Below are positions 1 through 33,837 of a stretch of 37,850 nt of DNA, one piece after another. Both the position numbers and the translations under genes were made by a program. Below the pieces are notes generated by a model, which made no database searches, was not told the origin of the DNA, and worked only from the letters and a program-made list of their open reading frames with translations. Location: UHGV virus genome UHGV-0195539. One strand, given 5' to 3'. Source of the stretch: a virus. How positions within the stretch are numbered: the first letter of the stretch is position 1; every line of letters starts with the position of its first letter.

Positions 1-134
1 TTACACTGCAAGAACGCCGCAAATTCTGACCACATGATGTTAAGTCTGAACTCACACGGCGAACGGTGTATCATCCAGATGGCCAACAACATGGTTAAGC
101 ATAAAATGCTCACGATGATCGTTTTTTGCGGCAT
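1..134 (-). CDS. hypothetical small membrane protein, N-terminal part only (runs off window start)
   Basis: ATG at 134..132 preceded by AAAGGAG-type SD; frame open to window edge; begins MPQKTIIVSILCLTMLLAIWMI. Absent from ORF track because no stop in window. Confidence 0.3.
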   Translation of the reverse strand, partial: MPQKTIIVSILCLTMLLAIWMIHRSPCEFRLNIMWSEFAAFLQC

Positions 135-268
135 AGCGCTTGACTCCTTTTACAGGGAGGCGCTAACCTTCCACTTGTCTAGGGTAGGAATGGTTAGGGC
201 CTCGGGTTAAACAATATGTTTGACTCGGGGCCTTTCCACATCCGGCCTTCAGGTTTTCCTTCCAGCCG

Positions 269-571
269 TCAGCCGAAAGGCACCCGCGCGTAATGTACTG
301 GTTTTAAAGCCATACCGCAATCCTCCAGTTGTAGCGTTAACTGACTGCGTCCCTGATGGGATTTGCGCATTGTCTCCCGTGGAATATCTTTATCGTGGAA
401 GATCAACTGAGGCTGGCCAATAATTCTGTGCACACTTTCCATTGTTGAAAATGTGGCGCTGCACTCAAGGTTATTGCACTGATAGTATTTGTAGCGGATG
501 GTGCCGGTATCATTGGCGGCTTTACTGGTACGGATCCGGGCAGATGCGCCGCAGAATGGACAATGAAACAT
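269..571 (-). CDS. ogr: Ogr/Delta-family zinc-finger late transcription activator
   Basis: Internal Met of track ORF 269..646 starts MFHCPFCG...YYQCNNLECSATF, the Cys4 Ogr signature. About 100 aa, longer than the 72-aa P2 Ogr. Confidence 0.85.
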   Translation of the reverse strand: MFHCPFCGASARIRTSKAANDTGTIRYKYYQCNNLECSATFSTMESVHRIIGQPQLIFHDKDIPRETMRKSHQGRSQLTLQLEDCGMALKPVHYARVPFG

Positions 572-615
572 TGATATACCCCCCTGGCTGAACTGGGGTT
601 GAACTCGTCGCCATT

Positions 616-1740
616 CTAACCATTGCTTTCCTTTTCGGCTATCCACTCGGGTATTCTTGCCTCCAGTTCAAGCCTTGTGGTGAAGCCGCTTCCGTCGATA
701 TTGTGTTCCACTTTTGCAATGAGCCAGTCCTGATTGTCTATTTCGGTTTTAAAGCCGGTTACCGTGCCATGCATTTCAGGGTAAAGCTCCGCTCTGCCCC
801 GGGCCAGCGTGATGGAGAATTCAGCCGCACCGCGCTGTAATTGCTGCCACCTGGCGGCAGCTGCGCGCTGTGCAGCAATTTCATTTGGGTAGGTTTTTCT
901 CAGAACGAACACGTTACCTTCTGCCCCCTCCATGTAGCTGCCTTCCCGGCTGCTGCTCTTTTCAGCGTGAGTTTTTCGTTTTTTTATGTTGACGGCTTTC
1001 TTTTTGCCATGATTCAAATCCAGCCAGTACGCCTTCACCCCTGTGTATGCCTGGCGATCGGCTATTCTGAACTGGTGACTGTCTCCGTCACTGCGTGCCA
1101 GTGCAAATGAGGGGAGTGGGCGCCCGTCAGCTGTCACGCCGCCACCCGGCAGAATGAACAGCAGACAGCCATTTTTGACGGTAGTGATGGCTCCCAGCAT
1201 ATCAGCCATGCGGGTAAGGAATGACATGTCGCTTTCTTCCGTCTGGTCGGCATGATCGATTTCAATATCCATAAGCATATCGCTTATCTGGGCTTTCAGT
1301 CCGTAACGGTGGGCAATAGCGGAAACCACGCGTTCAACAGTCACGTCGTGCCAGGATACTTCCCGTTTGACGTTAAATTCCTCCCTGAAGTCTGCGCTGT
1401 TTGCACTCAGTGTCAGCCGATCCGGAGGTCCTTCATGAGCGACCTCATCAACAATGTAGGTGCCTTTATCAACCAGAGGTTCTCCCTTCCATCCCAGCAT
1501 GACTCTGATGTGTGTTCCCCGCCCGGGGAGAGCCAGCTGCCCGTCGGCATCATCCAGCACAAGAGTGACCCTGTCTGCTTCAAACCCCCGGTTGTCTGTC
1601 ATGGAAAGCGATATCACCCGGTTACTCAGTTCCTGAAGTGTGTTTTTATCCTGCTCCCTGTCCAGTGAAACGCTGAAATCAGGCATTTTCACCAGTTCTT
1701 TCAGGGGGGAATAAACCGTGTTACCGTTCAGCAATACCAT
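616..1740 (-). CDS. D: phage tail protein D (late control gene D family)
   Basis: Motifs DNRGFEAD, GWKGE, LVDKG, AEFSI, GSGFTT recalled from P2 gpD. Start set at internal Met (MVLLNGN) with GGAGG SD. Confidence 0.85.
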   Translation of the reverse strand: MVLLNGNTVYSPLKELVKMPDFSVSLDREQDKNTLQELSNRVISLSMTDNRGFEADRVTLVLDDADGQLALPGRGTHIRVMLGWKGEPLVDKGTYIVDEVAHEGPPDRLTLSANSADFREEFNVKREVSWHDVTVERVVSAIAHRYGLKAQISDMLMDIEIDHADQTEESDMSFLTRMADMLGAITTVKNGCLLFILPGGGVTADGRPLPSFALARSDGDSHQFRIADRQAYTGVKAYWLDLNHGKKKAVNIKKRKTHAEKSSSREGSYMEGAEGNVFVLRKTYPNEIAAQRAAAARWQQLQRGAAEFSITLARGRAELYPEMHGTVTGFKTEIDNQDWLIAKVEHNIDGSGFTTRLELEARIPEWIAEKESNG

Positions 1741-1894
1741 AATTCCTCCGTTTTTCCCGCCACAGTTGCATACCAGAAACACCACCGGAATGAGTTTGGG
1801 TTGTATGTGTATTGCGAGAAACCGCAGTTCGTGAAAAAGCTCCCCGTGTTCGTAAAGATCTCTGCTGAACTCACACGAATGCATGGTGAATAAT

Positions 1895-3082
1895 ATGGCT
1901 GAAACCCGTTTCCATGGCGTGCGGGTCCGGGAGAATGCGGATCTGGTCACGGCCATTAATGATATTGACTCCAGTGTGATTGGTATCGTGGCTGTTGCTG
2001 ATGATGCTGATGCAAAAACATTTCCGCTGGATAAGCCGGTGCTCCTGACGCGCGTTATGGATGTGCTGGGTAAGGCCGGGAAAACCGGCACGCTGTACAA
2101 AAGTCTGAAAGCTATTGCCGATCAGGTCAGCACCAGAGTTGTTGTGGTGCGGGTTGCTGCTGCGAAGGAGGGGGATGGTCAGCCGACACAAACGCAGCTT
2201 GTTATTGGTGAGGTCAAAAATGACGGAACCTATACAGGCATGCAGGCGCTCCTGGTGGCTGAACAGAATGAGGCTGTTGGTGTTCGTCCCAGGATCCTGG
2301 CTGTGCCATCGCTTGACACCAAAGAGGTGGTGGCGGCACTGGTAACCGTCGCGAAAAAGCTGCGTGCCTTTGTGTATGCGGGCTGTCCCGGCTGTAATAC
2401 CGTGCAGGAGGCTGTCACCTGGCGCGCCGATCTTGCTCACCGTGAAGTTATGCTGATCTGGCCTGATTTTATCGCGTACAACCCTAACAGTGGCCAGAAT
2501 GAGGCTTTTCCTGCATCTGCGTATGCGTGCGGGTTGCGTGCGAAGATTGACCACGAGCAGGGCTGGCATAAATCCCTGTCCAATGTGGCAGTGAATAATG
2601 TCCTGGGTATTTCTGTGCCGGTGTTCTGGTCGCTCCAGGCAGAGGACAGTGACGCGGAAACCCTCAATGACAAGGAGATCACGACACTCATTAAACGTAA
2701 CGGCTTCCGTTTCTGGGGTAACCGGACTCTCGACACCACTACCTACACCTTTGAGACCTACACGCGTACGGCGCAGTCGCTGGCGGATACCATCGCCGAA
2801 TCGCAGTTTGAAACCGTGGACAAGCCGCTGACGCCGTCGAACGTGAAGGATGTGTTAAGCGATATCCGGGCAAAACTGAGTGCCTTTGTGACAGCGGGTA
2901 AACTTATCGGGGCAGAGTGCTGGTATGACGTGGTGGATAACGGCACAACGGATCTGCGTCAGGGGGTTGTGCGCATTCGCTACAAGTATACGCCGGTGCC
3001 ACCGCTTGAAGATCTTGAGCTTCACCAGACGTTTACCGATGAATTCTTTGCGGGTGCATTTGCATCACTGGGAGGTGAGTAA
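1895..3082 (+). CDS. FI: contractile tail sheath protein FI
   Basis: N-terminus HGVRV, FPLDKPVLL, GTL, and LRAF, PDF, KIDHEQGWHKSLSNV, NRT, YTPVPPLEDL match P2 FI. Second in-frame ATG chosen for GGTGA SD; stop overlaps FII start (TAATG). Confidence 0.9.
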   Translation: MAETRFHGVRVRENADLVTAINDIDSSVIGIVAVADDADAKTFPLDKPVLLTRVMDVLGKAGKTGTLYKSLKAIADQVSTRVVVVRVAAAKEGDGQPTQTQLVIGEVKNDGTYTGMQALLVAEQNEAVGVRPRILAVPSLDTKEVVAALVTVAKKLRAFVYAGCPGCNTVQEAVTWRADLAHREVMLIWPDFIAYNPNSGQNEAFPASAYACGLRAKIDHEQGWHKSLSNVAVNNVLGISVPVFWSLQAEDSDAETLNDKEITTLIKRNGFRFWGNRTLDTTTYTFETYTRTAQSLADTIAESQFETVDKPLTPSNVKDVLSDIRAKLSAFVTAGKLIGAECWYDVVDNGTTDLRQGVVRIRYKYTPVPPLEDLELHQTFTDEFFAGAFASLGGE

Positions 3083-3591
3083 TGGCGGTACCAAACAAAC
3101 TTCGCGTTTTCACGGTGTACATCGATGGCGAAAACAAGCTGGGGCGGGTGACGTCCTTCACGTCGCCTAAACTGACCCGAAAAACGGAGTCCTTCCGTGG
3201 TGCCGGGATGCCCGGCAGTGTTTCCGTCGACTTTGGTCTTGATGATGGTGCACTGGATCTCTCTTTTGCGGTAGGCGGCGCAGATGCCCACCTTTTCTCC
3301 CGTTATGCCGGGTCACTTGATGAAGTCCGTCTTCGCTTTTCCGGTGAGTACTATTCGGATGCGGATATCAGATATGTGGATATTGAGGTCCGTGGGCGCA
3401 TCACTGAAATCGATATGGGGGAGGCGAAGCAGGGTGAAGACACTGAGCACAGTTATTCGATGAAAAACACCTGGTACAGACTGAGCGTGGATGATCGGGA
3501 AAAAATCGAATTTGATGTGCTGAATTTTATCTGGCGCATTGACGGTAAGGATGTGCTGCCGGATCGCACCCGCTCGATGCTGGGCTTCTGA
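3082..3591 (+). CDS. FII: tail tube protein FII
   Basis: 169-aa ORF directly after the sheath gene; size and position are typical of P2 FII. Confidence 0.85.
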   Translation: MAVPNKLRVFTVYIDGENKLGRVTSFTSPKLTRKTESFRGAGMPGSVSVDFGLDDGALDLSFAVGGADAHLFSRYAGSLDEVRLRFSGEYYSDADIRYVDIEVRGRITEIDMGEAKQGEDTEHSYSMKNTWYRLSVDDREKIEFDVLNFIWRIDGKDVLPDRTRSMLGF

Positions 3592-3609
3592 TTATTGTTT
3601 AACAGAGAA

Positions 3610-3626
3610 CGGCGGGGATCCCGCCG
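3610..3626 (+). terminator. GC-rich stem-loop between tail tube and chaperone genes (possible attenuator)
   Basis: Inverted repeat CGGCGGG-GAT-CCCGCCG seen directly; no U-tract follows, so probably not a full terminator. Confidence 0.3.
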
Positions 3627-3638
3627 TGGAGACTGAAA

Positions 3639-4028
3639 ATGGATAAAGAAACGGAAATGACCACTGACACTGCCGTCAGTAACGGGGAGGCTTCCGCGGT
3701 GGCGGTTGCCGCTACGGCTGCACCTAAGAACGTGGTGAAGCTGACGGTGCCTGTTGTGCGCGGAGATGTGTCGTACAGTGAAATTAAAATCGGTCCGCTG
3801 GCGAATCAGGCCGGATCGCTGCGTGGGCTGTCTTTGCTTGCGCTTTATAATATGAACTGTGATGCCATGGTCACCTGGCTTGCGCGTGTGACAGAGCCAA
3901 AACTCAAGGAGGCCGAAATGTATGCCATGAATGTGGCGGATTTTACGGCGCTGAGCTCGGCGGCGGTTAATTTTTTCGCACCCTCGGGGTCGAATGCACC
4001 GGCACCGGAGAACACGGCAGAGCCGTAA
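3639..4028 (+). CDS. E: tail assembly chaperone E
   Basis: 129-aa ORF between tube and tape-measure genes with GGAGA SD; contains a slippery heptamer near its 3' end. Confidence 0.8.
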   Translation: MDKETEMTTDTAVSNGEASAVAVAATAAPKNVVKLTVPVVRGDVSYSEIKIGPLANQAGSLRGLSLLALYNMNCDAMVTWLARVTEPKLKEAEMYAMNVADFTALSSAAVNFFAPSGSNAPAPENTAEP

Positions 4029-4186
4029 CCTGTCTTTGCTTTGACTGCATTGAAGATCCCGTTGCGGATATTGCTGTTATTTTTAACTGGCCGCCCGCAG
4101 AGATATTTGCAATGACGCCTGCAGAGGTGGTCGCCTGGCGTGAGCGGGCGGCTGCCAGAAGCGGAAGTCACAATCATGATGAATAA
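3639..4186 (+). CDS. tail assembly chaperone E+E', predicted programmed -1 frameshift product
   Basis: Heptamer T TTT TTC at about 3971..3977 in the E frame; the -1 frame then stays open for about 70 codons to TAA at 4184..4186, overlapping the start of T. Confidence 0.5.
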
Positions 4187-6968
4187 TCTGCATATCAGGG
4201 TTGCTCTGGCGGCGGCAGACACCCTGACACAACCTCTCAGGCGCGCCCGCGAAACCGTGGGCGCGCTTTCTGATTCCCTCCGTGAAACTCAGGACTCCAT
4301 CCGCTCGCTTGAACGGCAGAGTGAAGCCTTTGCTGCGGCACAGACTAAATTTGACGAAGCCACCCGGAAAATTGCCGCTGTTCAGCAGCAACTGAACCGT
4401 CTGCAGCAGGCGGAGCGTGAGGGTACCGTGCTCAGTGAACGGCAGCGTGAAATGATGGCTTCGCTGACCACCCGGCTTGAACGTCTGAACCGGGTGAGGG
4501 ATGTACATCAGCGACGCCTGGAGGATTCACGCCGGGAGCTGGAGAGACACGGTATTGCCGCAGAGGGCAGCAGTCAGACCATACAGGCAGCCATTCGCCG
4601 GACGGCAGAGTATAACGAAGAGCTGGCGCGACAGCGGCAGGCGCTCGCACAGGTGACCCGTGCACAGCAACGCTATGAACAGGCGCAGGAGCGACTCGGG
4701 CGGATACGTAATGCCGGTGCGGCGGCACTGGCTGCCGGTGCAGCAGGACTTTACGCTGGCGGGCGTGCTGTTGCGCCGGTGATGGATCTCCAGCGTCATG
4801 GTGCCGTCATTGCGGCTCAGGCAGGAGAGGGCGCGTCAGATGCCGTGGGGTATACCGGGGTTATAAACCACATGGTTCATACCGGTATCACACCGGATGC
4901 ACAACTGGCGGCTGAAGCTGTGGGTGCTGTCCGCTCCACTCTGGGTGGGCTGGGGGCGGTTAGTGAGAATGAACTGACCCGAATCACCCGAAAAATGCTG
5001 GATATGCAGGCCGTGATGGGGGGCGATATCCCGCAGCACATTCAGGCGGCTGCCATCATGATCAAAAACGGTCTTGCACGCAGCAGTGACGAGGCGGTTG
5101 ATCTGATGGTGGCGGGCATGCAGCGCATGGGGCCGGTTATGCGCGATGAGCTGCCTGAGATCCTTCACGAGTATTCGACCCATTTTCGTAACATGGGGCT
5201 GACAGGGTCGGAAACCATGACGCTCCTTGCGGATATGGCGCAGCAGGGGAAGTTTGCGCTGGATAAAACCGGCGATGCCATCAAGGAGTTCAGTATTCGC
5301 GGCTCCGATATGTCAAAGGCGAGTGCTGAAGCGTATGCGCTTATCGGGCTGGATGCAGCCAGGATGTCATCGGCTGTAGCCAGTGGTGGAACGGCTGCAC
5401 GGGCTGCGCTGCAGAAAACAGCCTCGGGTCTGTTGCAGATCGTCGATCCGGCTGAGCGGGCCAATGCGGCCATCGCACTTTTTGGTACACCGGTTGAAGA
5501 TCTGTCTGTCGATCAAATCCCTGCCTTTCTTGGCGCGCTGGCGCGGGTGTCTGACCGTATGGCTGACGTGTCTGGTGTGGCGGACCGGATGGGGCAAACC
5601 CTGCGTGACAATCTGAGTGGTGATGTGGCGCGGCTTACCGGGACGTTCAGCGCGCTGAGAAGTGGGATTATCGGGGAGATTACGGACGATCTGCGTGGGC
5701 TTGTCCGGATGGCCACAGCGTGGGGTGAGCGTCTGCAGGCGTGGGTGAATGCGCATCCGGAACTGGTGCGAATGATTGCGCTGACGACGGGAGCGGTGCT
5801 GGCGTTAACCACAGCGATGGGGGCGTTGTCCGTTGCGGCCTGGATGGTTGTCGCACCGTTACTGAAACTGCGTCTGGGGCTTGCCCTGCTTCGCGCGATC
5901 CCGGCCGGACTCTCTGTTGCCGGTACGCTGTTTGGCGGACTGACGGGTGTGATTTCAGCCGTGGGGGCTGCGCTGGGGGCGCTGACCTGGCCGGTTGTGG
6001 TGGCGGTGGGAGCCCTGGTCGGTGGTGCTCTGCTGATCTGGCGCTACTGGGATCGGGTCAGGGCGTTTGTGAGCGGATTTATTGAAGGGGTACAGTCAGC
6101 ACTGGCGCCCTTCATGGCGACAGCCTCCCGTTTTGCGCCGCTGCTGGATCTGGTTTCAGGGGCACTGTCCCGTATTCTGGGATGGTTTAAATCCCTGTTA
6201 ACGCCAGTCTCCTCCACGCGTGATTTGCTTGAGCAGTGCACCTCTGCCGGGCAGACGTTCGGGAGCTCTCTGGCCGGTGCGTTAGCCACGGTTTTTTCGC
6301 CCCTGAAAGCTCTGATTGACGGTCTGGCGTGGGTGCTGGAAAAACTCGGTGTTCTGCCCGGTGAAGCTGAGCGGGTTAAGCGAAAACTGGATGAGGCCCG
6401 TAAAACGCCGGTGGCATGGGAGTGGGATCCGGAACAGAAAAAAATGGTTCAGAAGGCGTGGCACTGGTCGCCTCCTGGTGGGGCCAGTGTGCCTTCCGGC
6501 GCCTCCGGTACACAGCCTCCGCCGGTGGCGCTCCCTGCGGGGATAGCGCCGGACGGTAACCGTAACGTTCTCCGTCACCTGAAAGGCATTGAGGGGAATA
6601 CCGGTGGTCTGCTGGCTGAAAACCGTAAACGTATCGGACCCGGAGATATTGTGTTTAAACATCTTCCACGGGCGCTGGCGGTCCGGGGGCAGTGGCATGA
6701 ACCTGTCGTTGCGCCGTCTTCCGGCGGAATGCGCGCGCTGCCACAGGAGGAGATTCAGGTGCAGCAATGGCCGACGGCACGCCCGGCGCCACGAATGCAC
6801 CAGCAGGAAACCTTCGCCAGCGCCTTTCAGGGGGAGATACATGTGCATCTTCACGGGGTGAGTTCGCATAATCCCCGGGAACTGGCGCGCATGGTTGGTG
6901 ACGCTGTCAGGGCGGAAATGAACAGAATGGCACGTGCCGGAACCGGCAGCTTCCGCGATCGCGACTGA
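4140..6968 (+). CDS. T: tail tape measure protein T
   Basis: 942-aa ORF with coiled-coil N-terminal region, central Ala/Gly-rich hydrophobic segments and P2 tail gene position. GTG start with GAGGTG SD; ATG at 4176 is an alternative. Confidence 0.85.
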   Translation: MSGRLPEAEVTIMMNNLHIRVALAAADTLTQPLRRARETVGALSDSLRETQDSIRSLERQSEAFAAAQTKFDEATRKIAAVQQQLNRLQQAEREGTVLSERQREMMASLTTRLERLNRVRDVHQRRLEDSRRELERHGIAAEGSSQTIQAAIRRTAEYNEELARQRQALAQVTRAQQRYEQAQERLGRIRNAGAAALAAGAAGLYAGGRAVAPVMDLQRHGAVIAAQAGEGASDAVGYTGVINHMVHTGITPDAQLAAEAVGAVRSTLGGLGAVSENELTRITRKMLDMQAVMGGDIPQHIQAAAIMIKNGLARSSDEAVDLMVAGMQRMGPVMRDELPEILHEYSTHFRNMGLTGSETMTLLADMAQQGKFALDKTGDAIKEFSIRGSDMSKASAEAYALIGLDAARMSSAVASGGTAARAALQKTASGLLQIVDPAERANAAIALFGTPVEDLSVDQIPAFLGALARVSDRMADVSGVADRMGQTLRDNLSGDVARLTGTFSALRSGIIGEITDDLRGLVRMATAWGERLQAWVNAHPELVRMIALTTGAVLALTTAMGALSVAAWMVVAPLLKLRLGLALLRAIPAGLSVAGTLFGGLTGVISAVGAALGALTWPVVVAVGALVGGALLIWRYWDRVRAFVSGFIEGVQSALAPFMATASRFAPLLDLVSGALSRILGWFKSLLTPVSSTRDLLEQCTSAGQTFGSSLAGALATVFSPLKALIDGLAWVLEKLGVLPGEAERVKRKLDEARKTPVAWEWDPEQKKMVQKAWHWSPPGGASVPSGASGTQPPPVALPAGIAPDGNRNVLRHLKGIEGNTGGLLAENRKRIGPGDIVFKHLPRALAVRGQWHEPVVAPSSGGMRALPQEEIQVQQWPTARPAPRMHQQETFASAFQGEIHVHLHGVSSHNPRELARMVGDAVRAEMNRMARAGTGSFRDRD

Positions 6969-6978
6969 GGTGAAAAAG

Positions 6979-7470
6979 ATGATGATGATTTATGGGATGT
7001 TTGTGTTTCAGTTAAGTACCCTGCCGCATCAGCAGGTGGAACAGAGTAAACGCTGGCGACACGTCAGTAATGAACGGGTTAACCGTTCATCCTCCTGGCA
7101 GTATATTGGCTCTGGTGAAGATCACATCACGATGTCCGGTGTGCTCTGTCCGGAAATCACCGGCGGGGAGGTGTCACTGACTGCCCTGAACACCCTGGCC
7201 TACACAGGATTACCCTGGCCACTGATTGATGGTGTCGGACAGATTTACGGGATGTATGTCATTACGGAAATCAGGACCACCCGTCAGGAGCTGGATCGCT
7301 ATGGCATGGCCCGCAAAATTGAGTTCACTGTCAGCTTTCAGCGATGCAATGAAGATCTGCGTGAGCGTCTTCAGTCGGGCTCGGTGGGTGATCTGATGGC
7401 AGGATTAAAAAACAGCGCGTCGTCGGCCCTGTCGTCGGCGTCCTCTGCGCTGTCTGGTCTCATGTTGTGA
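6979..7470 (+). CDS. U: tail protein U
   Basis: Starts MMMIYGMFVF after GAGGTG SD, abutting the T stop; 163 aa; gpU-like by position and size. Confidence 0.8.
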   Translation: MMMIYGMFVFQLSTLPHQQVEQSKRWRHVSNERVNRSSSWQYIGSGEDHITMSGVLCPEITGGEVSLTALNTLAYTGLPWPLIDGVGQIYGMYVITEIRTTRQELDRYGMARKIEFTVSFQRCNEDLRERLQSGSVGDLMAGLKNSASSALSSASSALSGLML

Positions 7471-7480
7471 AGGTCACTGT

Positions 7481-8068
7481 TCAGGCTTCGGCTTCTTTTC
7501 CCCAGCCAACCTTATAGTCCAGAATCGCCGCCGTATCGTTCAGGGCGGCGATCTCTTTTTTCATGTTACGCTGGCGAATGTGAATTTCCATCCCTTTGGC
7601 AAACAGGGCTTTTGCGGCTGCATCGCTGAGGGCAATCAGCTCATCAGCAGAAACAGGAACATCGTTGTTCTGTGCATCAGTCCAGAAAAAATCCAGCGGC
7701 AGGATCCCCGCTTTTGCGGCAGCAACGGAAGGCTCAAGGCGGGCCTGCGTTGACTTCCCGTAGTCCCATTTCCTGCCGTTATGTTCAAAGGTGTAACTCG
7801 CCGCTTCCATCGCATTACGCCAGGCGTTGATTTCGTCGTTTTTCAGGCGTCTGGCGTTTTCCCTGTCAGTGTCGTTTTCCTGGTATTCAGATACAGGGCC
7901 GTGATTTCCTGCTTTCAGTTCGCCCCAGAGTTTTTTGCCGTGTGGCGAGTTGTCATATTCGGTTGCCGTATAGGGCAGCCAGCTCTCCTCCCCTTCAAAC
8001 TGGATCTCACAGTCGATAGTGCCGTCACGGTTATAAGCGGCATTTCTTGCTGATTTGATTGTGTGCAT
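7481..8068 (-). CDS. G: tail fiber assembly protein G
   Basis: 195-aa ORF immediately downstream of the tail fiber gene on the same strand; Tfa/gpG-like. Confidence 0.75.
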   Translation of the reverse strand: MHTIKSARNAAYNRDGTIDCEIQFEGEESWLPYTATEYDNSPHGKKLWGELKAGNHGPVSEYQENDTDRENARRLKNDEINAWRNAMEAASYTFEHNGRKWDYGKSTQARLEPSVAAAKAGILPLDFFWTDAQNNDVPVSADELIALSDAAAKALFAKGMEIHIRQRNMKKEIAALNDTAAILDYKVGWGKEAEA

Positions 8069-8079
8069 GAGTCTCTCCG

Positions 8080-9417
8080 TCAGGCAATGCGCTCAAATAT
8101 TCCGATTCCTGCGCCTGCATAAATGTCAGCGCAGGCCCGCCACGTGCCCGGTGGCCTGCGGTTTGTGTTCCAGTTTTGCATGGATTCACGGGGGCCGAAG
8201 TTGCCTTCGGAATGAGTCAGGCTTATCAGTCTGAGTTTACTGCCCGGGCGGGTGTTTCCGGCCGTTATATCAATTTTGGCTGGCCACTCCCCTTCGGCAT
8301 CCGTTGCCGCCAGAATAAAGCTGCCCACATCCCAGAGTGTCCGCTGTGTTTTTGCCTGTGCAGCCTCCAGTGCTTGCCGTGCTTTCTGCCCGGCGTTTTC
8401 TGCTGCCGTCATGGCCGTCTTCACAGCTTTTGGTGTGGCAGCCAGCACTTCACTGTCACTGTCCGTTGCGCTGCTTAGCTGAACAATACCTCGCTCTGTC
8501 AGGGAGGCATCGCCGGTCTGCGTGAGGGGGAGTATGGCAACCTCCTTCCATTCAGACCATGGCCCGTTGCCGGTGAAGTTACCTGTCACTGTCCGGATAA
8601 ATTTTCGTGGTGGATTCCAGGCGGTGTATTCCTGCTGGCAGAATCCCCATGCGCCCATCCTGATGGATAATGATCCGGCTGATGTTACCGGGTAGTGATG
8701 TGCTGTAGTGGCGCCGTTGTTGTTGGGCTGATAGTAGTCACCATGATGTTCAGGTCTCCCCAGTGTATTCAGATCCACGGCGAGGGGGGCTGTTGGTCTT
8801 GTTACTGTCAGCGCCTTAAGTGCTTTTATTGCTTTGGGTGTGGCTGCCCGGGTTTCATCATCACTGTCGGTTTCACTACTGAGCTGAGTAAATCCTTTAC
8901 TGGTGGTTGTGGCATCCGGGTGTTTACCGTTTTGTTCATGCTGCTTTATCATTTCTGCCACGCCAGCCTGTGTTGCCATGGTGGTTGATGAGTCGGCTGT
9001 CAGATTTACAGAGGCTTCGTTGCTCAGCAGAATCACCATGCGGAATACCTGTTCTCTGCCTGAGCCCTCATCAAGCTGCGGTTTGTAACCTTCCGCAACA
9101 TTACCTACGGCGATGAGTGTGCCTTTGCTGTCAAACAGACCGATTTCGCGGATCCAGAATCCTCCTTCATTCGCAGGAATGATCACTTCGGCGGTTAAAA
9201 AACTGGTGTTTTCCGCGTCACGGCTGACCCTGCTGACCTCGCCCCGCCAGACCTCTTTAACGAGAGCGGTTTGCGTGGCCAGTGGTTCTGTGGGTTTACC
9301 GTTACCGTCTCCGACGGCGATATGTGTCAGCGTGATCTTTTCTCCATCCGGTAACACCGCAGCTGCGAGGGCTGCTGTGCCGGCATTTGTGATAATGGTT
9401 TTGTATTTTGCGGCCAT
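8080..9417 (-). CDS. H: tail fiber protein H
   Basis: N-terminus MAAKYKTIITNAGTAALAAA, LIAVGNVAEGYKPQ, GFTQLSS and the repeated LAATPKAVK motif match the P2 gpH N-terminal region; C-terminal half differs. Second Met chosen for SD spacing. Confidence 0.85.
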   Translation of the reverse strand: MAAKYKTIITNAGTAALAAAVLPDGEKITLTHIAVGDGNGKPTEPLATQTALVKEVWRGEVSRVSRDAENTSFLTAEVIIPANEGGFWIREIGLFDSKGTLIAVGNVAEGYKPQLDEGSGREQVFRMVILLSNEASVNLTADSSTTMATQAGVAEMIKQHEQNGKHPDATTTSKGFTQLSSETDSDDETRAATPKAIKALKALTVTRPTAPLAVDLNTLGRPEHHGDYYQPNNNGATTAHHYPVTSAGSLSIRMGAWGFCQQEYTAWNPPRKFIRTVTGNFTGNGPWSEWKEVAILPLTQTGDASLTERGIVQLSSATDSDSEVLAATPKAVKTAMTAAENAGQKARQALEAAQAKTQRTLWDVGSFILAATDAEGEWPAKIDITAGNTRPGSKLRLISLTHSEGNFGPRESMQNWNTNRRPPGTWRACADIYAGAGIGIFERIA

Positions 9418-9419
9418 CA

Positions 9420-10043
9420 TTACTCCTTGTCCGGTCTGATGGTTACTGTGATGCCTTCATAGGTGACTCCACCCGGGTGGATGTCACCACTGACTGACAG
9501 CGGGCTTGTCAGTTCTGCTGCCGGATATACCACGATGGTTTCCCCGGTCAGCGTGGCCCCGGTTATGCGGGATACACCCCGTGCAACGTAGGTCATTTTC
9601 ATGGCGGCAAGGTGTCGGCTTACCGGGCGAACGGTGGTAATCATTCGCTCCATCTCCTGCCGGGTTTCCTCTGTCAGTCCGCGCTCCGATATGTCAATAT
9701 CCAGCCTGAATGACCCCGGCGGATCGTTGTTCTCCCACCATTCTGTAATACTCAGTATCGCGCCGAAGGGCTCCACAGCCCGACGCATGGCGCTGATGGT
9801 GCCTTTGTGGCGGTGAATATGCCACGAGTCACGGATGATCTGACGACGTGCCTCTTCACTCCATGTTTCATCCCAGCGGTCAACGGAAAGCGCCCAGGCA
9901 AGCCATGGCAGCAGATGGGCTGGGCAGGTGTCGGGGTTCCAGAGGGTGTTGATATGGATCGGCAGCTCTGACAGGCGCTGAGCGCCCTGTTCCGAATGAT
10001 GCAGGAAGGAGGGCGATGATGGCGGCAGCAGTCGGTTATTCAT
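9420..10043 (-). CDS. I: baseplate/tail protein I
   Basis: LWNPDTCPAHLLPWLAWALSVDRWDE and ITEWWENNDPPGSFRLDI match P2 gpI; ATG with AGGTGG SD. Confidence 0.85.
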   Translation of the reverse strand: MNNRLLPPSSPSFLHHSEQGAQRLSELPIHINTLWNPDTCPAHLLPWLAWALSVDRWDETWSEEARRQIIRDSWHIHRHKGTISAMRRAVEPFGAILSITEWWENNDPPGSFRLDIDISERGLTEETRQEMERMITTVRPVSRHLAAMKMTYVARGVSRITGATLTGETIVVYPAAELTSPLSVSGDIHPGGVTYEGITVTIRPDKE

Positions 10044-10932
10044 CGGTGCCACCTGCAGAGATGTTCCGGGATGTGCAGCGGGCTGACTGGGTGTTACTGA
10101 TCACCACATTCTGCGCTGGTTTCTTCAGCTCGACTCGCTGAACGCCCGGTACGTGTAGCGTTGCCATAATGGCAGAGCGGGCCACATCACGCCCTATGGC
10201 ATTCTGAGTCTTCAGCCATGTGTCAAGTGCATCTCTGGCGGCGGCAAGAATGGGTTCAGATTCCGGGCCAGGATAAAAATAGAGTACGGCCTCAATATCG
10301 TAACTGACGATGGTCGCACTCTGTACCGTGAGTCTGTCGGCCAGGGGGCGCACAGTTTCATCATTGAGAGCCCGGCTGACGGTCGCGATTAATTCCGGTG
10401 ACGCTGTGCCGTCTCCTTCCGTTGAGAGAATGGAGACAATGACCGTCGCAGGTGACGGACTGGTTGCCCGTGCATCGGCAACAAGACCGCTGGCACTGCG
10501 GGCAAAATATTCATATGCAGCAGAGGGGCCTGCGACGCTGAAACCTTCAAATCCGGATTGTGCCCGCAGACGGAACGCGCTGTCGCTCTCCATGATGGCA
10601 GCTTCTGTATCAGTAGCAGGTTTCAGTTCAAGGCGTTTCGCATTCACGATAGCGGCGAGATTATCCAGGTCTGTGGATACGGCATGGCTGAGCATGCACC
10701 CCGCCGCTGCATCGTTGATCCGCTGACGGAGCAGCATTTCGCGAAAGGCGATGGCCTGAGCAATGATGTTGAGTGGCTCTGATTCCAGCGCAATGGCTGC
10801 GCTGACGGCACTGCGCATGTTTTCAGGGAAGGCATCAATCATAAAGGCCTTCACGTCTTTCAGTATGCTCTCATAATCCAGTGATTCAATGATCTGCGGA
10901 CGTGGTAACTGAGACAGGTCAATTGTCGGCAT
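10036..10932 (-). CDS. J: baseplate assembly protein J
   Basis: MPTIDLSQLP, SVAG, VSILS, RPLADRVTVQSA, LYFYPGPESEPI, LHVPGVQRVEL match P2 gpJ. Confidence 0.9.
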   Translation of the reverse strand: MPTIDLSQLPRPQIIESLDYESILKDVKAFMIDAFPENMRSAVSAAIALESEPLNIIAQAIAFREMLLRQRINDAAAGCMLSHAVSTDLDNLAAIVNAKRLELKPATDTEAAIMESDSAFRLRAQSGFEGFSVAGPSAAYEYFARSASGLVADARATSPSPATVIVSILSTEGDGTASPELIATVSRALNDETVRPLADRLTVQSATIVSYDIEAVLYFYPGPESEPILAAARDALDTWLKTQNAIGRDVARSAIMATLHVPGVQRVELKKPAQNVVISNTQSARCTSRNISAGGTDE

Positions 10933-11284
10933 TACTCCCCCTCAGCGGAATGCTCATCTGTACGGGCTGCATTGTGCGGGTGAGCACGCCTGAGATGGCC
11001 AGCAGAGCGCGTCCGTCAGGCAGCCAGGCGATATCCACCCGGTTAATGGCGATCCGGGGCTCCCACTGTGCGAGCGCCATAACCACCGCGCTCATGCACT
11101 GCAGACGCGTCACGTCGTTTTGTGGCGCATCGAGCAGTTCAGGTAACAGGCTGCCATACTCTCTTCGCATGATGCGACTGCCGCGCGGGGTGGTCAGAAT
11201 ATTGTTTACAGAGTGGCGGAGGTGTTCTGTGTCACTGATGCATCCGCTACCATGCGGGTTCATGCCTGTGCATACCGGTGTCAT
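10919..11284 (-). CDS. W: baseplate assembly protein W (GPW/gp25 family)
   Basis: GMN, ILTTPRGSRIMRREYGSLL, QWEPRI match P2 gpW; ATGA overlap with the V stop. Confidence 0.85.
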   Translation of the reverse strand: MTPVCTGMNPHGSGCISDTEHLRHSVNNILTTPRGSRIMRREYGSLLPELLDAPQNDVTRLQCMSAVVMALAQWEPRIAINRVDIAWLPDGRALLAISGVLTRTMQPVQMSIPLRGSNADN

Positions 11285-11877
11285 TTCGGCCCCCCTGTCA
11301 TGCTTCCGCCGGACTGAACACCGTTATGAACGTGCGTATGCACGGTAACACCATTTGAGCGTAAGTTTCCGTTACTGTGTGTGATATCCCCTTTCATGGT
11401 GCCACCGTCAGTCAGTTCAAACGTCCTGGCCTTCAGATGTTTTGTGCACTCTACGGCCGGTGTGTCCAGGGTAATACGTGTTTCCGCAGAGATCTCTGCG
11501 GTTTTGATTCCTTTCACCGTCAGCGCGCCTTTTTCTGCGTCATAGCGTATCTCGGCACCGTCAGGTGCAAGGAGTATCACTTCATTCTGTTTTGTGCCGG
11601 GCGCCGGGTGTTCTTCGCTGTAGAGACTGCCAGCCACAACGGCCATTTCAGGACTGCCGCCCGGGCAGAGCAACAGCACCTGTTCACCGGGGGAGGGGGG
11701 CAGCCAGATTTTAAACGCCCCGGCGCGTGTGCAGTTCCAGCGGAGCCAGTCCGTTGTCAGTCCGCCGCTGGTAGCGCGAATGCGCCAGTTTTTCAGATCC
11801 ACCTCCGAAACGACGCCGGTGCGGACCATGTTTTCCAGCAGTCGCATGATTTCAGCATTCAACGGGTGTTTCTCCAC
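11281..11877 (-). CDS. V: baseplate spike/assembly protein V
   Basis: NMVRTG, TDWL, GEQVLLL, RITLDTP, GGTMKG, SNG, HTH matches to P2 gpV; start may be GTG at 11877 or ATG at 11847. Confidence 0.8.
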   Translation of the reverse strand: MEKHPLNAEIMRLLENMVRTGVVSEVDLKNWRIRATSGGLTTDWLRWNCTRAGAFKIWLPPSPGEQVLLLCPGGSPEMAVVAGSLYSEEHPAPGTKQNEVILLAPDGAEIRYDAEKGALTVKGIKTAEISAETRITLDTPAVECTKHLKARTFELTDGGTMKGDITHSNGNLRSNGVTVHTHVHNGVQSGGSMTGGPK

Positions 11878-12503
11878 AGGTTGTTGATAATGATTTCCGT
11901 CACTTTCTGTCTGTCGGCTTCACTGAATCCCAGCAGTTCGCGTTGCGGATAGCGGACGGCATTACCGGCAGAGACCAGTGACACTTCGCCGAACTGATGA
12001 ACGCGGGCAATGCGGGCTGCGCGGCCTTCAAATCCCACGCTGACGCCGCCGGGATCGGTTTTTACCTTCAGAAAGCGGTTTGTCCGAAGCTGCTCAAACA
12101 TGGGTGGACGCTTAATGGCGCTCTGCGTTCGCCTGCGGGTGTCAATTTCCAGGTATTCTTCAATATCGGCTTTGTGGAACGAGCGTATTCCCCGGCGCTC
12201 CGTGTCGTAACCGGTGATCATGGGGCCGTACCGGCCGGTTGTTGTCCGCCAGTTTTTCAGTCGTCTCACCTGAGTGCCGTTCCAGATGAACACCACACCT
12301 GCCTGGACACGGAATACACGTTTTTTACGGGCGGGCCACCGGTTACCGTCCGGTGATTGTTGCGAACGTATACGCTTTTGTTGCGCGGCGCGGACAGCCT
12401 GACCGACAGCACGTGCTGTTTTGTTTATACCGGCAGCGGACAGACCACTGAGGATCTCCTGAAAGAGACCGTCCAGTCTGTGCAGGTCATCCGGAGCCAT
12501 CAT
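11859..12503 (-). CDS. S: tail completion / virion morphogenesis protein S
   Basis: Position between R and V; ARIARVHQFGE-type C-terminal motif typical of virion morphogenesis proteins; internal Met chosen, start uncertain. Confidence 0.65.
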   Translation of the reverse strand: MMAPDDLHRLDGLFQEILSGLSAAGINKTARAVGQAVRAAQQKRIRSQQSPDGNRWPARKKRVFRVQAGVVFIWNGTQVRRLKNWRTTTGRYGPMITGYDTERRGIRSFHKADIEEYLEIDTRRRTQSAIKRPPMFEQLRTNRFLKVKTDPGGVSVGFEGRAARIARVHQFGEVSLVSAGNAVRYPQRELLGFSEADRQKVTEIIINNLWRNTR

Positions 12504-13289: not shown

Positions 13290-15335
13290 TTATGCGGCGT
13301 TGCTGTTATTGATATCCACCGTCACATACTCAATCAGCACGGGGTAGGTGTCCTTGTTACTGGTGATATCCGTGATCAGCAGTTTGTCGTTATCCAGTCC
13401 TGCCGCCGGGCATTTCGCCAGATTAAAGGCCGCCTGGGTCTGACCGTTGATGACCGGTGTCACGCTGATGCTGTTATTTCCGGCAAACCGGAACACCACG
13501 TTGTGCCAGTTATGATTAAATGCCCCGAAGGTTCCCAGTTTTGCATTCTGTTGTTTGTGCTGCATCAGATTCAGGTTTGCGCTGTCGCTCTGGATGAAGA
13601 AGGCGGCCAGCATATCGTTTCCTGCGCTGCCTTCCAGAACAACGTTTTCAGGTAGCTGAGAAACCGGCCAGTGCAGAGCCATGGCGAAGCGGTTTTCTGC
13701 CAGCTGAACACCTTCCGGGATTTTGAAACGAAAGGCAATTTCCCCGCCTTTCTGAAGTAATTCAGCTGCTTTACTTGCAGGCACATCGTGGGCGATTTTC
13801 CAGGCTGTTTGTTGCCCCTGGACTTTTTCCACTCGCATGGCTTTACCGCTCTGAGCAGCAGAGTCATTTACGACGGAGGCTTTTCCATCTGCCCCTGTCC
13901 AGCCCTGTTCTTTCAGTTTCCCTTCCTGTGCGTCTGCGCGATAAGCGACGGCCGTTGTTCTTGCCGGTGATGACTGCGTACCTGCGCCCGGCTGAGGTGC
14001 AGGTGTGTAGGGCTGCGGGCTTTCCGTGGTGGTGCTGTCTGAACCGGCCGTGGCGGGAGGTACTGCGACCACGCTGAACGGTGCGGGTGCACCTTTCAGG
14101 AAGGCGACGGTCTTCCCGGCATGCATCAGGATCGCCGTTGCCAGGCGGTCAGAAATAATGCCGCGGCGGGCCCATGAACTGAAATGCGTGGCGCGATCTG
14201 AAGAGGTCCAGTTTCCGTTACTACGGGATGCAGCACCGTAATAACCGGCTTCTGCCAGGTCAGGATCTTCGGCAGGCAGGTTTGTTGGCGTGTTAGCACC
14301 TTTCTCATCGGTCATCAGGGGCACAAAATAAATTTTTTGCGCTTCTTTGTTCTGATATGCACCGTAAACCACCGGGTACTGAGAGGTATATTGTTGTTTC
14401 CAGATATAGGTGGTATCGCCGCAAATCCAGGGAACAAGTGATGCGTTGCCTCCGGTGCACTGTGCAGCATATGCGCTGAGATCGGCGCGGAACTGATTCA
14501 CCATGTTCAGGAATAATTGCGGGTGCTGTGCGTATGTTGCTGATTTCAGATCAAACTCTCCCAGCATCCAGACCACGGATAACAGGACGTTTTTGGGGTT
14601 TTTATCCAGCGCGGCTTTTGTACGGGTAAGCAGATCGTTATACAGCGGTTTGCCGACGCCCCACAGGGATGATTCGGCCGTTGCTCCTGAAGATTCACTG
14701 AATGCCCCCTCAGCGCCGGAAGTAAGCGCTGACCCTCCACGACAGCAAGGTACCAGGAGGATCCCTGCATTTTTCGGGATAAACGCCAGTAATTTTTTGG
14801 CAATATGTAAACCCTGTCCGACGCAGCCATACTGACCTTTTGACAGATCGGCGTTCGGATGATTAAGGCTGCTCATATCCTGTACATCATGGAGACAGTG
14901 ATCTGCCGGAATAATATCGTTATAGGTACATGCAGCGCCGCCCGGTGTTACCGTACTGCGACGCGCTAACTGTTTAATTCGTGGATCAGGACTGTCGAAT
15001 GTATCGGGTAATGGCAGCCCCTCACCGTATGCCATGCCATTGGACTGACCAGCCAGTGGCACCACATAATAAAACTCTGGCTCAGTTGTGTGTCCAGTGT
15101 CGTATCCGTCGGTAGTGCCCGGTACGGGGTTTTCCTCGCCTTTTGGTACCGGAATGGCTGATGGCAGGTCTCTGTCAGTGACCAGTGCCTGCATCAGGTA
15201 AAATGGTGCTCCCGGCTCTGATGCTGAGACAGGTCCCCCAAGAAGTCCCCATCCTTCCCTGAGCATGGGCGCAAGTTTTTCGGCAAGTTCCTTGTTCGTC
15301 ATTGCCGTCACAAGCTGATAATGTTTCGGTACCAT
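13290..15335 (-). CDS. NanS-p-like sialate O-acetylesterase (SASA/SGNH-type esterase domain) with N- and C-terminal extensions
   Basis: GQSNG motif (PLAGQSNGMAYGEG) characteristic of SASA 9-O-acetylesterases; N-terminal YQLVTAMT...GW region resembles the DUF1737 domain of Stx-phage NanS-p. Start moved to second Met for GGAG SD. Confidence 0.7.
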   Translation of the reverse strand: MVPKHYQLVTAMTNKELAEKLAPMLREGWGLLGGPVSASEPGAPFYLMQALVTDRDLPSAIPVPKGEENPVPGTTDGYDTGHTTEPEFYYVVPLAGQSNGMAYGEGLPLPDTFDSPDPRIKQLARRSTVTPGGAACTYNDIIPADHCLHDVQDMSSLNHPNADLSKGQYGCVGQGLHIAKKLLAFIPKNAGILLVPCCRGGSALTSGAEGAFSESSGATAESSLWGVGKPLYNDLLTRTKAALDKNPKNVLLSVVWMLGEFDLKSATYAQHPQLFLNMVNQFRADLSAYAAQCTGGNASLVPWICGDTTYIWKQQYTSQYPVVYGAYQNKEAQKIYFVPLMTDEKGANTPTNLPAEDPDLAEAGYYGAASRSNGNWTSSDRATHFSSWARRGIISDRLATAILMHAGKTVAFLKGAPAPFSVVAVPPATAGSDSTTTESPQPYTPAPQPGAGTQSSPARTTAVAYRADAQEGKLKEQGWTGADGKASVVNDSAAQSGKAMRVEKVQGQQTAWKIAHDVPASKAAELLQKGGEIAFRFKIPEGVQLAENRFAMALHWPVSQLPENVVLEGSAGNDMLAAFFIQSDSANLNLMQHKQQNAKLGTFGAFNHNWHNVVFRFAGNNSISVTPVINGQTQAAFNLAKCPAAGLDNDKLLITDITSNKDTYPVLIEYVTVDINNSNAA

Positions 15336-15345
15336 AGTGACTCCG

Positions 15346-15621
15346 TTATTTTTCATGAGTGTTCATTCGTGCTGTCCGCTGCCGCTCCAGCCCGGCAATG
15401 GCGGCTTTATCGGCATTACAACTGTCCAGGGCATCTACCAGTCGGTCTCCCCAGTCAGCCACATCAGCCCATATCATGTGTTGCGGCAGCACCGGTACCG
15501 GTGTCTGTCTGGTCAGACTTTCCGGCACGCTCCCGCAAATGACGCCGGTTTTCAGCGGCGCTGGCGTGTTGTTGCAGGCTGTCAGCAACATCAGCAGGGG
15601 GAGAAGTGCGTGCGCACTCAT
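15346..15621 (-). CDS. o-spanin (Rz1/LysC-like outer-membrane lipoprotein)
   Basis: Signal peptide with lipobox LTAC (MSAHALLPLLMLLTAC); reading frame overlaps the 3' end of the i-spanin gene and extends past it. Confidence 0.6.
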   Translation of the reverse strand: MSAHALLPLLMLLTACNNTPAPLKTGVICGSVPESLTRQTPVPVLPQHMIWADVADWGDRLVDALDSCNADKAAIAGLERQRTARMNTHEK

Positions 15622-20293: not shown

Positions 20294-20365
20294 GGAAATT
20301 CTCCATAACCTGGTCGTTTTTCCCATGATGGCGGCAGATAACGGTGTGTCTCAAGGTGCTTAAGT

Positions 20366-20383
20366 TGTATGGCGACGGGGACA
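20366..20383. promoter_or_regulatory. candidate Ogr-dependent late promoter box (TGT-N12-ACA) in the divergent O/P intergenic region
   Basis: Exact TGT-atggcgacgggg-ACA read from the sequence, centred about 55 nt upstream of a plausible start site for P. Confidence 0.4.
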
Positions 20384-20448
20384 ACGCGGGCTGGTATCAG
20401 GCGGTATTGCTGAGGCTTAATCTTGCCCTGTTAATGTCAGGGGGTGCA

Positions 20449-33575: not shown

Positions 33576-33599
33576 GTCTGTCTCCTTTCTCTCCTGTGA

Positions 33600-33824: not shown

Positions 33825-33837
33825 ATTTCCACCCGCG

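Follow-up and report, generated by a model that had tools for sequence, protein, structure and literature searches.

The divergent tail-gene block of a P2-like Escherichia coli prophage follows the common gene order of the P88 branch

In the window (the whole 37,850-nt stretch of viral genome UHGV-0195539 that was analysed), the tail genes FI, FII, E/E′, T and U lie on the plus strand and face away from D and ogr on the minus strand. The first-pass annotation described this block as inverted relative to P2 and left a real inversion, a lineage-specific arrangement and an assembly artefact as options. Our analysis indicates, with a probability of about 0.9, that the flipped block is the normal, fixed order of a large and already sequenced P88 group rather than a private oddity. 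The chief value of this result is negative: what looked anomalous is how a widespread and already sequenced P2-like branch is normally laid out, and the window therefore needs neither a misassembly check nor a special explanation.

The gene map (Table 1) was built on the ORF listing together with PHROG and Pfam matches. These confirmed the opposite orientations of FI–U (1895–7470) and of ogr and D, and the 154-bp D/FI gap and the 10 bp between the stop codons of U and G, both reported earlier, were confirmed in the sequence. All tail genes of the window are intact ORFs, and the contractile tail module is complete, comprising FI, FII, E/E′ with a −1 shift, T, U, D and the Ogr-type activator. 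P2-family capsid, scaffold, terminase, gpL, gpR, gpS and gpA domains were found elsewhere in the window, which represents an almost complete E. coli prophage of the P2-like type (Peduoviridae). The equivalent of the 269–571 gene in relatives L003 and L004 is annotated as “ogr/Delta-like zinc finger family protein”, and the equivalent of 4049–4186 in L003 was annotated by PGAP as “GpE family phage tail protein”. The ogr protein of the window is 51% identical to P2 Ogr and contains CX2CX24CX4C, with a loop two residues longer than that of the CX2CX22CX4C motif by which the Ogr/Delta zinc finger was defined (PMC3931495).

Table 1. Features of the tail-gene region and of the D/FI and U/G junctions (window coordinates).
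Feature	Coordinates	Strand	Remarks
ogr/Delta-type zinc-finger late activator gene	269..571	-	100 aa; PHROG 603 transcriptional regulator
Gene D (late control D / tail protein)	616..1740	-	374 aa; PHROG 52, E = 1.8e-151
D/FI divergent control region	1741..1894		154 bp
Shine-Dalgarno for D	1743-1749	-	GGAGGAA; from sequence
Predicted extended -10 of leftward D late promoter	1762..1770	-	TGcAACTGT; predicted start ~1755
Ogr-type activator box	1802..1819		TGTATGTGTATTGCGAGA; TGT-N12-AGA, one mismatch to TGT-N12-ACA; centre 1810.5
Predicted -10 of rightward pF-like late promoter	1854..1859	+	AAAGAT; +35..+40 from box edge; predicted start ~1866
FI, tail sheath	1895..3082	+	PHROG 23, E = 1.5e-117; alternative ATG at 1883
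FII, tail tube	3082..3591	+	PHROG 55; “phage major tail tube protein” in L003
E, tail assembly chaperone	3639..4028	+	PHROG 103; E stop at 4028
E+E′, chaperone	3639..4186	+	-1 frameshift on slippery T TTT TTC (3971-3977); E′ stop at 4186; three-frame translation
T, tape measure protein	4176..6968	+	PHROG 28, E = 2.2e-105; start per L003 annotation
U, tail protein	6979..7470	+	PHROG 76, E = 2.8e-66
Weaker candidate terminator of ...H-G transcript	7405..7455	-	antisense inside 3′ end of U
U/G gap	7471..7480		10 bp between convergent stops: U 7468-7470, G 7481-7483 (complement)
Candidate intrinsic terminator of FI-U transcript	7524..7562	+	9-bp GC-rich stem + T-run; antisense inside 3′ end of G
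Tail-fibre assembly protein in G position (DUF4376)	7481..8068	-	PHROG 1141, E = 1.1e-76
H	8080-9420	-	followed by I, J, W, V, also minus strand

The same order was found throughout the close relatives. The 80 nearest IMG/VR loci (sheath identity 75–99%) are all consistent, to the extent of each contig, with ogr and D on the minus strand, FI to U on the plus strand, and H, I and J on the minus strand. In all 45 listed GenBank phage records with a sheath identity of at least 58.6% (P88, phiSM, SEN4/5, 3LV2017 and others), D is adjacent to the block and on the opposite strand. A scan of one genome per species gave the inverted order at 35 of 35 loci with a sheath identity of at least 57%, ranging from Citrobacter to Xenorhabdus and Morganella, whereas the 45 loci with an identity of 52% or less without exception keep FI–U, D and ogr co-directional. 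The canonical order was also present in P2, phiCTX and ENT90, and the inverted order in annotated Xuanwuvirus genomes, Chuche, a Reipivirus and a Reginaelenavirus. At one of the 80 IMG/VR loci, U and T were flipped again.

The proteins of the window divide in a similar manner. Its sheath is 57–79% identical to those of clade members versus 46–52% to those of canonical-order phages (76% to P88, 48% to P2), and the corresponding values for D are 59–79% versus 46–49% (77–79% to the P88-type D, 47% to P2 D). The window does not fit the canonical P2/186-type synteny of Peduovirus and most Peduoviridae, in which FI–U, D and ogr are co-directional with V, W, J, I, H and G, and D closes the pF operon. 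It fits the layout of the P88-type branch, in which ogr–D diverges from FI across some 150–165 bp, and FI–U converges with the fibre and baseplate genes. It belongs to this branch along with Xuanwuvirus (P88), phiSM, SEN4/5, Klebsiella 3LV2017 (Reginaelenavirus) and Kp4848-1 (Reipivirus). Since the inverted order is common in close relatives, it is not an anomaly. The first-pass annotation had itself named a shared order among close relatives as the finding that would speak against its suspicion, and the 80 IMG/VR loci, 35 species genomes and 45 phage records all share it; of its options, the lineage-specific arrangement is the one borne out.

The orientation of the block is genuine. Positions 1–12000 of the window are colinear with 12 complete E. 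coli chromosomes at 95–99.7% identity, as a single alignment piece in most of them. An assembly artefact, in which the FI–U block had been misjoined in the wrong orientation, was prompted solely by a prior suspicion arising from the departure from P2 synteny, and it is for practical purposes ruled out, because both junctions are crossed colinearly in these 12 independent genomes; other assemblies and isolated phages add over 150 loci with the same order. In the E. coli genomes the prophage occupies at least two chromosomal sites, adjoining cycA in one strain and serS in another.

It is hardly credible that the inversion is recent, private to this prophage and possibly disabling. Nothing beyond the contrast with P2 suggests such an event, while the order reaches relatives with as little as 57% sheath identity in many Enterobacterales genera, the tail ORFs of the window are intact, and phages proven to make infectious virions have the same order. 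P88 can be induced and causes lysis of E. coli, and phiSM is likewise active as a phage (PMC6456863); SEN4/5 form plaques and myovirus particles (PMC5261728).

The DNA invertase located at the U/G junction in Xuanwuvirus members would be compatible with a programmed invertible segment that exists in two orientations, like the tail-fibre segments controlled by Gin, Cin or Pin. However, tblastn with the P88 invertase detected no homologue in the window, and a search for inverted repeats at both block junctions, a check proposed in the first-pass annotation, found none, the best pairs lying inside coding regions. Moreover, D and FI are divergent in every clade locus that covers both (at least 117), and the other orientation was never seen, making a switch of this kind extremely improbable. 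The strongest inverted-repeat pair (1693–1720 and 6287–6314) was considered as an inversion scar and rejected, as it sits within D and T.

The simplest reading of these data is that one old inversion marks the clade. The pF–FI–FII–E–T–U segment would have been inverted once in the common ancestor of the P88-type branch, with one breakpoint upstream of pF and the other at the U/D boundary, and the inverted order would then have become fixed, so that the arrangement in the window would be inherited, stable and functional. We infer this single origin from the clean threshold in sheath identity, not from a rooted phylogeny. The gap at 7471–7480 would be the right breakpoint of the old inversion. 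The lineage-specific arrangement offered in the first-pass annotation is best read as an old inversion that is now fixed. An explicit description of the FI–U inversion or of a D promoter was not found in papers on P88, phiSM, SEN4/5, Serratia PP4/KSP20, Burkholderia P2-like phages or the diversity of P2-like viruses. The missing Z/fun locus, also pointed out earlier, is indeed missing (tblastn of P2 Fun(Z) against the window gave no match, best E = 5.8), but its absence is uninformative, because P2 alone among 171 loci carries it.

The earlier statement that D is separated from its usual promoter holds relative to P2. However, in the inverted order the pF activator box lies just upstream of D, which probably has a late promoter of its own, judging from conserved promoter elements in mirror-image arrangement. 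A search of 1741–1894 for Ogr boxes, as the first-pass annotation had proposed, yielded one box with a single mismatch, at 1802–1819. Exact TGT-N12-ACA sites number 8 in the window versus 9.8 expected by chance, and none is in 1741–1894; the D/FI box becomes apparent only in a comparison with relatives that tolerates one mismatch. The sites of P2's own pF and pP/pO, TGT-N12-CCA, are likewise imperfect. Among 86 distinct D/FI intergenic sequences from the clade, 85 keep the box at this position, and in many of them it reads as a perfect TGT-N12-ACA. Clade members have one box of this type, 80–89 nt from the FI ATG and 67–85 nt from the D ATG (exception, L105, 110 nt), in a D/FI gap of 149–166 bp (one exception, 195 bp). 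In the window, the distance from the box centre to the FI ATG is 84 nt, compared with 83 nt for P2 pF, and the D ATG is 70 nt away. A TGT-N12-ACA match at 12379–12396 was considered as a pV promoter and set aside, being inside gene S and within chance expectation.

In a set of 29 non-redundant sequences, the box is flanked to the left and right by mirror-image nAnnAT hexamers at +35 to +40. On the FI side of these relatives, A36, A39 and T40 carry 1.6–1.8 bits. The D side mirrors this pattern, with TG at +32/33 and nAnnnT at +35 to +40 from the box edge; here A36 carries 1.6 bits, G33 about 1.2 bits, and A39 and T40 about 1 bit each. Conservation among related sequences partly reflects inheritance and not selection. 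The start sites in Table 1 are predictions from the mapped geometry of P2 and the conserved −10-like hexamers. A generic sigma-70 promoter scan gave no match in the D/FI gap in either direction, as would be expected of activator-dependent promoters.

From the sequence, it appears reasonably likely that the box at 1802–1819 is shared by two divergent late promoters, the predicted pF and pD. Through the inversion, the Ogr activator box of pF, which is dyad-symmetric, would have come to lie immediately upstream of D, where it would serve two promoters, each about 55 nt away: pF, directed rightward to FI–U, and a new pD, directed leftward to D and possibly ogr. P2 has a like arrangement at its divergent promoters pP and pO, for which its record annotates a single activator site (3057–3087); pP starts at 3016 and pO at 3127, both 55.5 nt from the box centre. 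The O/P region of the window has the same geometry, with one perfect box (20366–20383) in a 155-bp gap. The wider proposal, namely that a single dyad Ogr box drives D and FI–U in both directions as a second case of the pP/pO design, we hold at slightly better than even odds; the symmetry of the box could have allowed the ancestral inversion to be viable at once, as a single step. If this is correct, the late transcription map of the branch would consist of two box-sharing divergent pairs, pP/pO and pD/pF. Against sharing, the window box is one mismatch off (AGA for ACA), and the D-side −10 (AACTGT) is weak.

It is also conceivable, though unlikely, that within the clade-typical order D uses an Ogr-independent sigma-70 extended −10 promoter or another signal, with the mirror symmetry being coincidental or serving another protein. 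The D-side element opens with TG, as is usual in extended −10 promoters that work without an activator, the D side of the window has diverged from that of other members, and the simple sigma-70 scan showed no canonical promoter in the gap. However, the distance between hexamer and box is equal on the D and FI sides in the 29 divergent sequences even though the length of the D 5′ leader varies, exactly such a geometry exists at P2 pP/pO, and D in P2 is a late structural gene transcribed from pF. We therefore retain the shared, Ogr-dependent box as the preferred reading. The window lineage is without the CGCGCGCG run found on the D side of other members, and for this reason its D promoter may differ from theirs.

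Two hairpins near the U/G junction could terminate the converging transcripts (Table 1). The plus-strand hairpin has a local folding energy of −17 to −18.6 kcal/mol and is followed by TTTTTT. In the minus-strand hairpin, ACAGCGC pairs with GCGCTGT across a long loop, again followed by TTTTTT, and it is assigned to the H–G transcript with low confidence. Both are mere candidates, because the 14 terminators found by the scan are no significant excess over the 8.7 ± 3.3 expected.

As a clean structural marker, the orientation of FI–U distinguishes the P88 branch (sheath identity of at least 57%) from P2-like phages of canonical order (52% or less); it could aid annotation and classification. The conserved mirror-symmetric D/FI region offers a testable example of one activator site for two late promoters, and suggests how the inversion of a structural operon could be tolerated.

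The window has the same gene order and strands as the Xuanwuvirus phages P88, P884B11 and Citrobacter phage Shae_phiSM, in which hok/mok–ogr–D is on one strand, FI, FII, E, E′, T and U are on the other, and the fibre and baseplate genes H, I, J, W and V are back on the first; the D/FI gap of about 154 bp and the Ogr-type box at the equivalent place are also shared. It differs from these phages in the D-side promoter sequence and in protein identity, which is only 39–79% (D 77–79%, sheath 76%, T and E 39%), and megablast aligns only 8–9% of window positions 1–9500, at 75–76% identity. Where the window has only the 10-bp U/G gap, Xuanwuvirus carries a DNA invertase together with an alternative fibre cassette. 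The ICTV genus criterion is approximately 70% nucleotide identity over the genome, and the megablast of 1–9500 together with the 39% protein identity of E and T places the window probably outside Xuanwuvirus.

With the P2 F operon (pF–FI–FII–E–E′–T–U–D, then ogr), the window shares the gene set, the E/E′ −1 frameshift on a T-run, the Ogr-type activator and the spacing between box and FI ATG. The order in the P2 record, V W J I H G / fun(Z) / FI FII E T U D ogr, is co-directional with D last in the pF operon, whereas in the window pF–FI–U is inverted and D diverges from FI. The D/FI region is also similar to P2 pP/pO, with one dyad box midway, starts about 55 nt to either side (mapped in P2, predicted in the window) and an intergenic region of approximately 155–170 bp; pP/pO drives the head and packaging operons from mapped starts, whereas its D/FI counterpart is proposed from sequence conservation. 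Stenotrophomonas phage Smp131 differs from the window in being a distant lineage in which members of the V and F operons were exchanged without an FI–U inversion. It is nevertheless a published example of a P2-like phage in which reshuffled late operons, with their TGT-N12-ACA promoters in new places, are tolerated, and its PP′/PO′ promoters have one shared site (PMC3931495).

The gene map of the window was drawn from the ORF list and from PHROG and Pfam searches, and it was compared with the P2 record, in which the genes run co-directionally in the canonical order V W J I H G / fun(Z) / FI FII E T U D ogr. Against this record, the map supports the first-pass annotation in that the segment comprising the late promoter pF and FI to U is inverted; the 154-bp gap between D and FI and the 10 bp between the stop codons of U and G were both confirmed in the sequence. 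Outside the inverted block, the rest of the window amounts to a nearly complete P2-like prophage. No homologue of P2 Fun(Z), labelled non-essential in the P2 record, was found in the window or in the other 170 loci compared. The reported absence of Z/fun is thus correct for the window but not unusual, since P2 alone has Fun(Z) and absence is the norm.

Features of the inverted block and remainder of the window
Feature	Coordinates	Strand	Basis or remark
ogr/Delta-type zinc-finger gene	269-571	minus	ORF, PHROG/Pfam
D	616-1740	minus	ORF, PHROG/Pfam
D/FI gap	1741-1894		154 bp
Predicted -10, D side (TGcAACTGT)	1762-1770	minus	predicted start near 1755
Predicted -10, FI side (AAAGAT)	1854-1859	plus	predicted start near 1866
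FI, sheath	1895-3082	plus	alternative in-frame ATG upstream at 1883
FII, tube	3082-3591	plus	
E	3639-4028	plus	
E', extension of E	end 4186	plus	-1 shift on T TTT TTC, 3971-3977
T, tape measure	4176-6968	plus	
U	6979-7470	plus	
Weaker candidate terminator	7405-7455	minus	folding; antisense in 3' end of U
Tail-fibre assembly gene, G position	7481-8068	minus	
Stronger candidate terminator	7524-7552, T-run to 7562	plus	folding; antisense in 3' end of G
H	8080-9420	minus	
I, J, W, V		minus	
S, R			rest of window; tail completion
Phage lysozyme			rest of window; lysis
L, M, N, O, P, Q			rest of window; head and packaging
Gene A, Dam-type methylase			rest of window; replication
Integrase			rest of window; integration

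When 13 tail proteins of the window were compared by tblastn with the 80 nearest IMG/VR contigs (sheath 75-99% identical), all 80 had ogr and D on the minus strand, FI to U on the plus strand and (G), H, I and J on the minus strand, within the reach of each contig. A species scan, based on sheath alignment with one genome per bacterial species, yielded 80 loci. All 35 with sheath identity of at least 57% were inverted (in Citrobacter, Salmonella, Enterobacter, Kosakonia, Symbiopectobacterium, Erwinia tracheiphila, Trabulsiella, Mixta, Klebsiella, Serratia, Raoultella, Pantoea, Yokenella, Chania, Xenorhabdus, Photorhabdus, Pectobacterium, Morganella and Dryocola), and all 45 with identity of 52% or less had FI to U, D and ogr co-directional. 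Among the GenBank phage records listed with sheath identity of at least 58.6%, D was adjacent and on the opposite strand in 45/45, a set including P88, 500465-2, PhiR44_2, phiT5282H, ST16-OXA48phi5.4, the Kp48xx series, KSP20, 3LV2017, 520873 and SEN4/5. Because inverted and canonical loci split cleanly by sequence identity, these data favour a single old inversion that a large branch of P2-like phages has inherited. The inversion is therefore not an anomaly, being the common arrangement of close relatives, and the suggestion of a lineage-specific arrangement holds for the IMG/VR, species-scan and GenBank relatives alike. Further rearrangements were observed in L100 (Trabulsiella odontotermitis), L145 (Rahnella sp. 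AA) and one of the 80 IMG/VR contigs, in which U and T are flipped again (U- T-); the others are I+ H+ downstream of U, and V W apart from J I H. These may represent second prophages, confusion of best hits or genuine extra rearrangements.

Misassembly of the FI-U block, raised as an alternative in the first-pass annotation, is excluded, as is a recent inversion private to this prophage. By megablast against complete E. coli genomes, 12 chromosomes covered all of window 1-12000 at 95.5-99.7% identity and were colinear over both junctions, most of them aligning across these as a single piece, and the close relatives share the order. Moreover, the prophage adjoins cycA in E. coli JNEC-KY177 and serS in SCU-106, the same element having integrated independently in the two strains with identical internal order. 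The element was found in these 12 genomes and one IMG/VR contig; no deposited phage genome matches it closely, the best aligning over at most 9% of the window's first 9.5 kb at ~76% identity. The window opens (1-305) within a Hok/Gef (MokW-like) toxin locus at the end of the prophage, which shares 87% identity with loci of Stx-converting phages; in two related E. coli prophages, hok/gef is present as two tandem copies beside the chromosomal flank (L003 2522-3134; L004 994-1606). In the window, the H tail-fibre ORF (446 aa) is intact, with 99-100% identity to its counterparts in these relatives; PGAP nevertheless annotates the region as a pair of partial pseudogenes in each of the two E. coli genomes (L003 11419-12417; L004 9888-10892), which probably reflects a short or chimeric fibre, not real decay.

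Many relatives have an invertase at the convergent junction of U and G. A segment flipping back and forth is nevertheless excluded for the window, in which no invertase homologue was found; inverted repeats, proposed as a check on the junctions, were absent from the block borders, and a single orientation was seen in all loci. Both hairpins at the U/G junction remain candidate terminators, because a general terminator scan gave no significant enrichment.

The late promoters of P2 are Ogr-dependent and contain a TGT-N12-ACA element (PMC3931495). In the P2 record, a single activator site (3057-3087) is annotated for the divergent promoters pP and pO, whose mapped starts (3016 and 3127) are both 55.5 nt away from the centre of a TGT-N12-CCA box. 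The search of 1741-1894 for Ogr boxes, as earlier proposed, gave no exact TGT-N12-ACA match in the D/FI gap; with one mismatch allowed, TGTATGTGTATTGCGAGA was found at 1802-1819, centred 70 nt from the D ATG and 84 nt from the FI ATG, compared with 83 nt for the pF box of P2. Of 86 distinct sequences of the D/FI gap across the clade, 85 contained a homologous box, often a perfect TGT-N12-ACA; it lay 80-89 nt from FI and, with the exception of one member, 67-85 nt from D. Alignment of 29 non-redundant sequences (<85% identity), anchored on the box, revealed a -10-like hexamer, nAnnAT, on either side of the box, at +35..+40 from its edge: GAttAT toward FI (A36, A39 and T40, 1.6-1.8 bits) and TG-n-aAncAT toward D (A36, 1.6 bits; G33, ~1.2 bits; A39 and T40, ~1 bit each), with little information at flanking positions. 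The predicted FI and D starts, ~55 nt from the box centre, would reproduce the pP/pO geometry, and the latter would leave D a 15-nt leader with GGAGGAA. From these sequence features we infer that the inversion placed the symmetric pF box beside D, a single Ogr box now serving both pF and a new promoter, pD.

Most clade members share two further conserved elements in this gap (D/FI intergenic regions of L001, L006, L087, L088 and L091-L125): an alternating CGCGCGCG run at +22..+30 from the box toward D, and GCGTGA at +10..+15 toward FI. A less likely but live alternative, which bears on the mechanism alone, is that D is driven by an Ogr-independent extended -10 promoter, as the TG dinucleotide of the D-side element and the divergent D side of the window lineage, which lacks the CGCGCGCG run, would suggest. 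A good -10 hexamer, TAGAAT (613-618, minus), overlaps the D stop, preceding the ogr ATG (571) by 35-40 nt, and is a candidate promoter belonging to ogr itself, analogous to the separate ogr promoter of P2. The 15-20 N-terminal residues of D are hypervariable among lineages. A 28-nt imperfect repeat (24/28 matches, above the maximum of 22 in all 30 shuffles) occurs in sense orientation in D (1693-1720; codons 7-16, NTVYSPLKEL) and T (6287-6314; residues ~718-727, TVFSPLKAL), and was absent from 25 other lineages checked.

A second divergent gap, between O and P (20294-20448, 155 bp), contains one perfect TGT-N12-ACA box (20366-20383). The true starts are likely the O ATG at 20293 (minus), preceded by GGAGA, and the P ATG at 20449 (plus); longer ORF calls begin at 20326 and 20344. 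S and V overlap by 4 nt (11859-11862), leaving no room between these genes for a P2-type pV; transcription of R-S-V-W-J-I-H-G may come by read-through from upstream or start at an internal promoter. Between R/S and the lysis genes lies a gene for a 688-aa cargo protein (13290-15356, minus) with DUF1737, SASA (sialate O-acetylesterase-like) and DUF6645 domains, annotated as "DUF6645 domain-containing protein" in E. coli JNEC-KY177 and presumably resembling the NanS-p esterases of Stx prophages. A low-GC stretch (33000-37000; 43-49% versus ~55% elsewhere) surrounds the integrase gene (35485-36492), includes several ORFs without a Pfam match, and is probably accessory or immunity cargo.

The inversion is unmentioned in the papers examined on P88, phiSM, SEN4/5, Serratia PP4/KSP20, Burkholderia P2-like phages and P2-like virus diversity, and is therefore documented in deposited genomes, not in what these papers say. 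P88 can be induced and lyses many strains of E. coli, phiSM is spontaneously active (PMC6456863), and SEN4/5 form plaques and myovirus particles (PMC5261728); since these phages are active, the inverted arrangement works in phages carrying it. The window's gene order is thus ordinary and clade-typical, and the only mildly new element is the inferred shared-box pD/pF pair. In the Xuanwuvirus genomes P88_4B11 and Citrobacter phage Shae_phiSM, MokW, ogr and D lie on one strand and FI FII E E' T U on the opposite one, followed by a DNA invertase and fibre cassette and then by G H I J W V on the first strand. The inverted order of the window also occurs in phage Chuche, a Klebsiella Reipivirus and a Reginaelenavirus, whereas P2, phiCTX and ENT90 have the canonical order.
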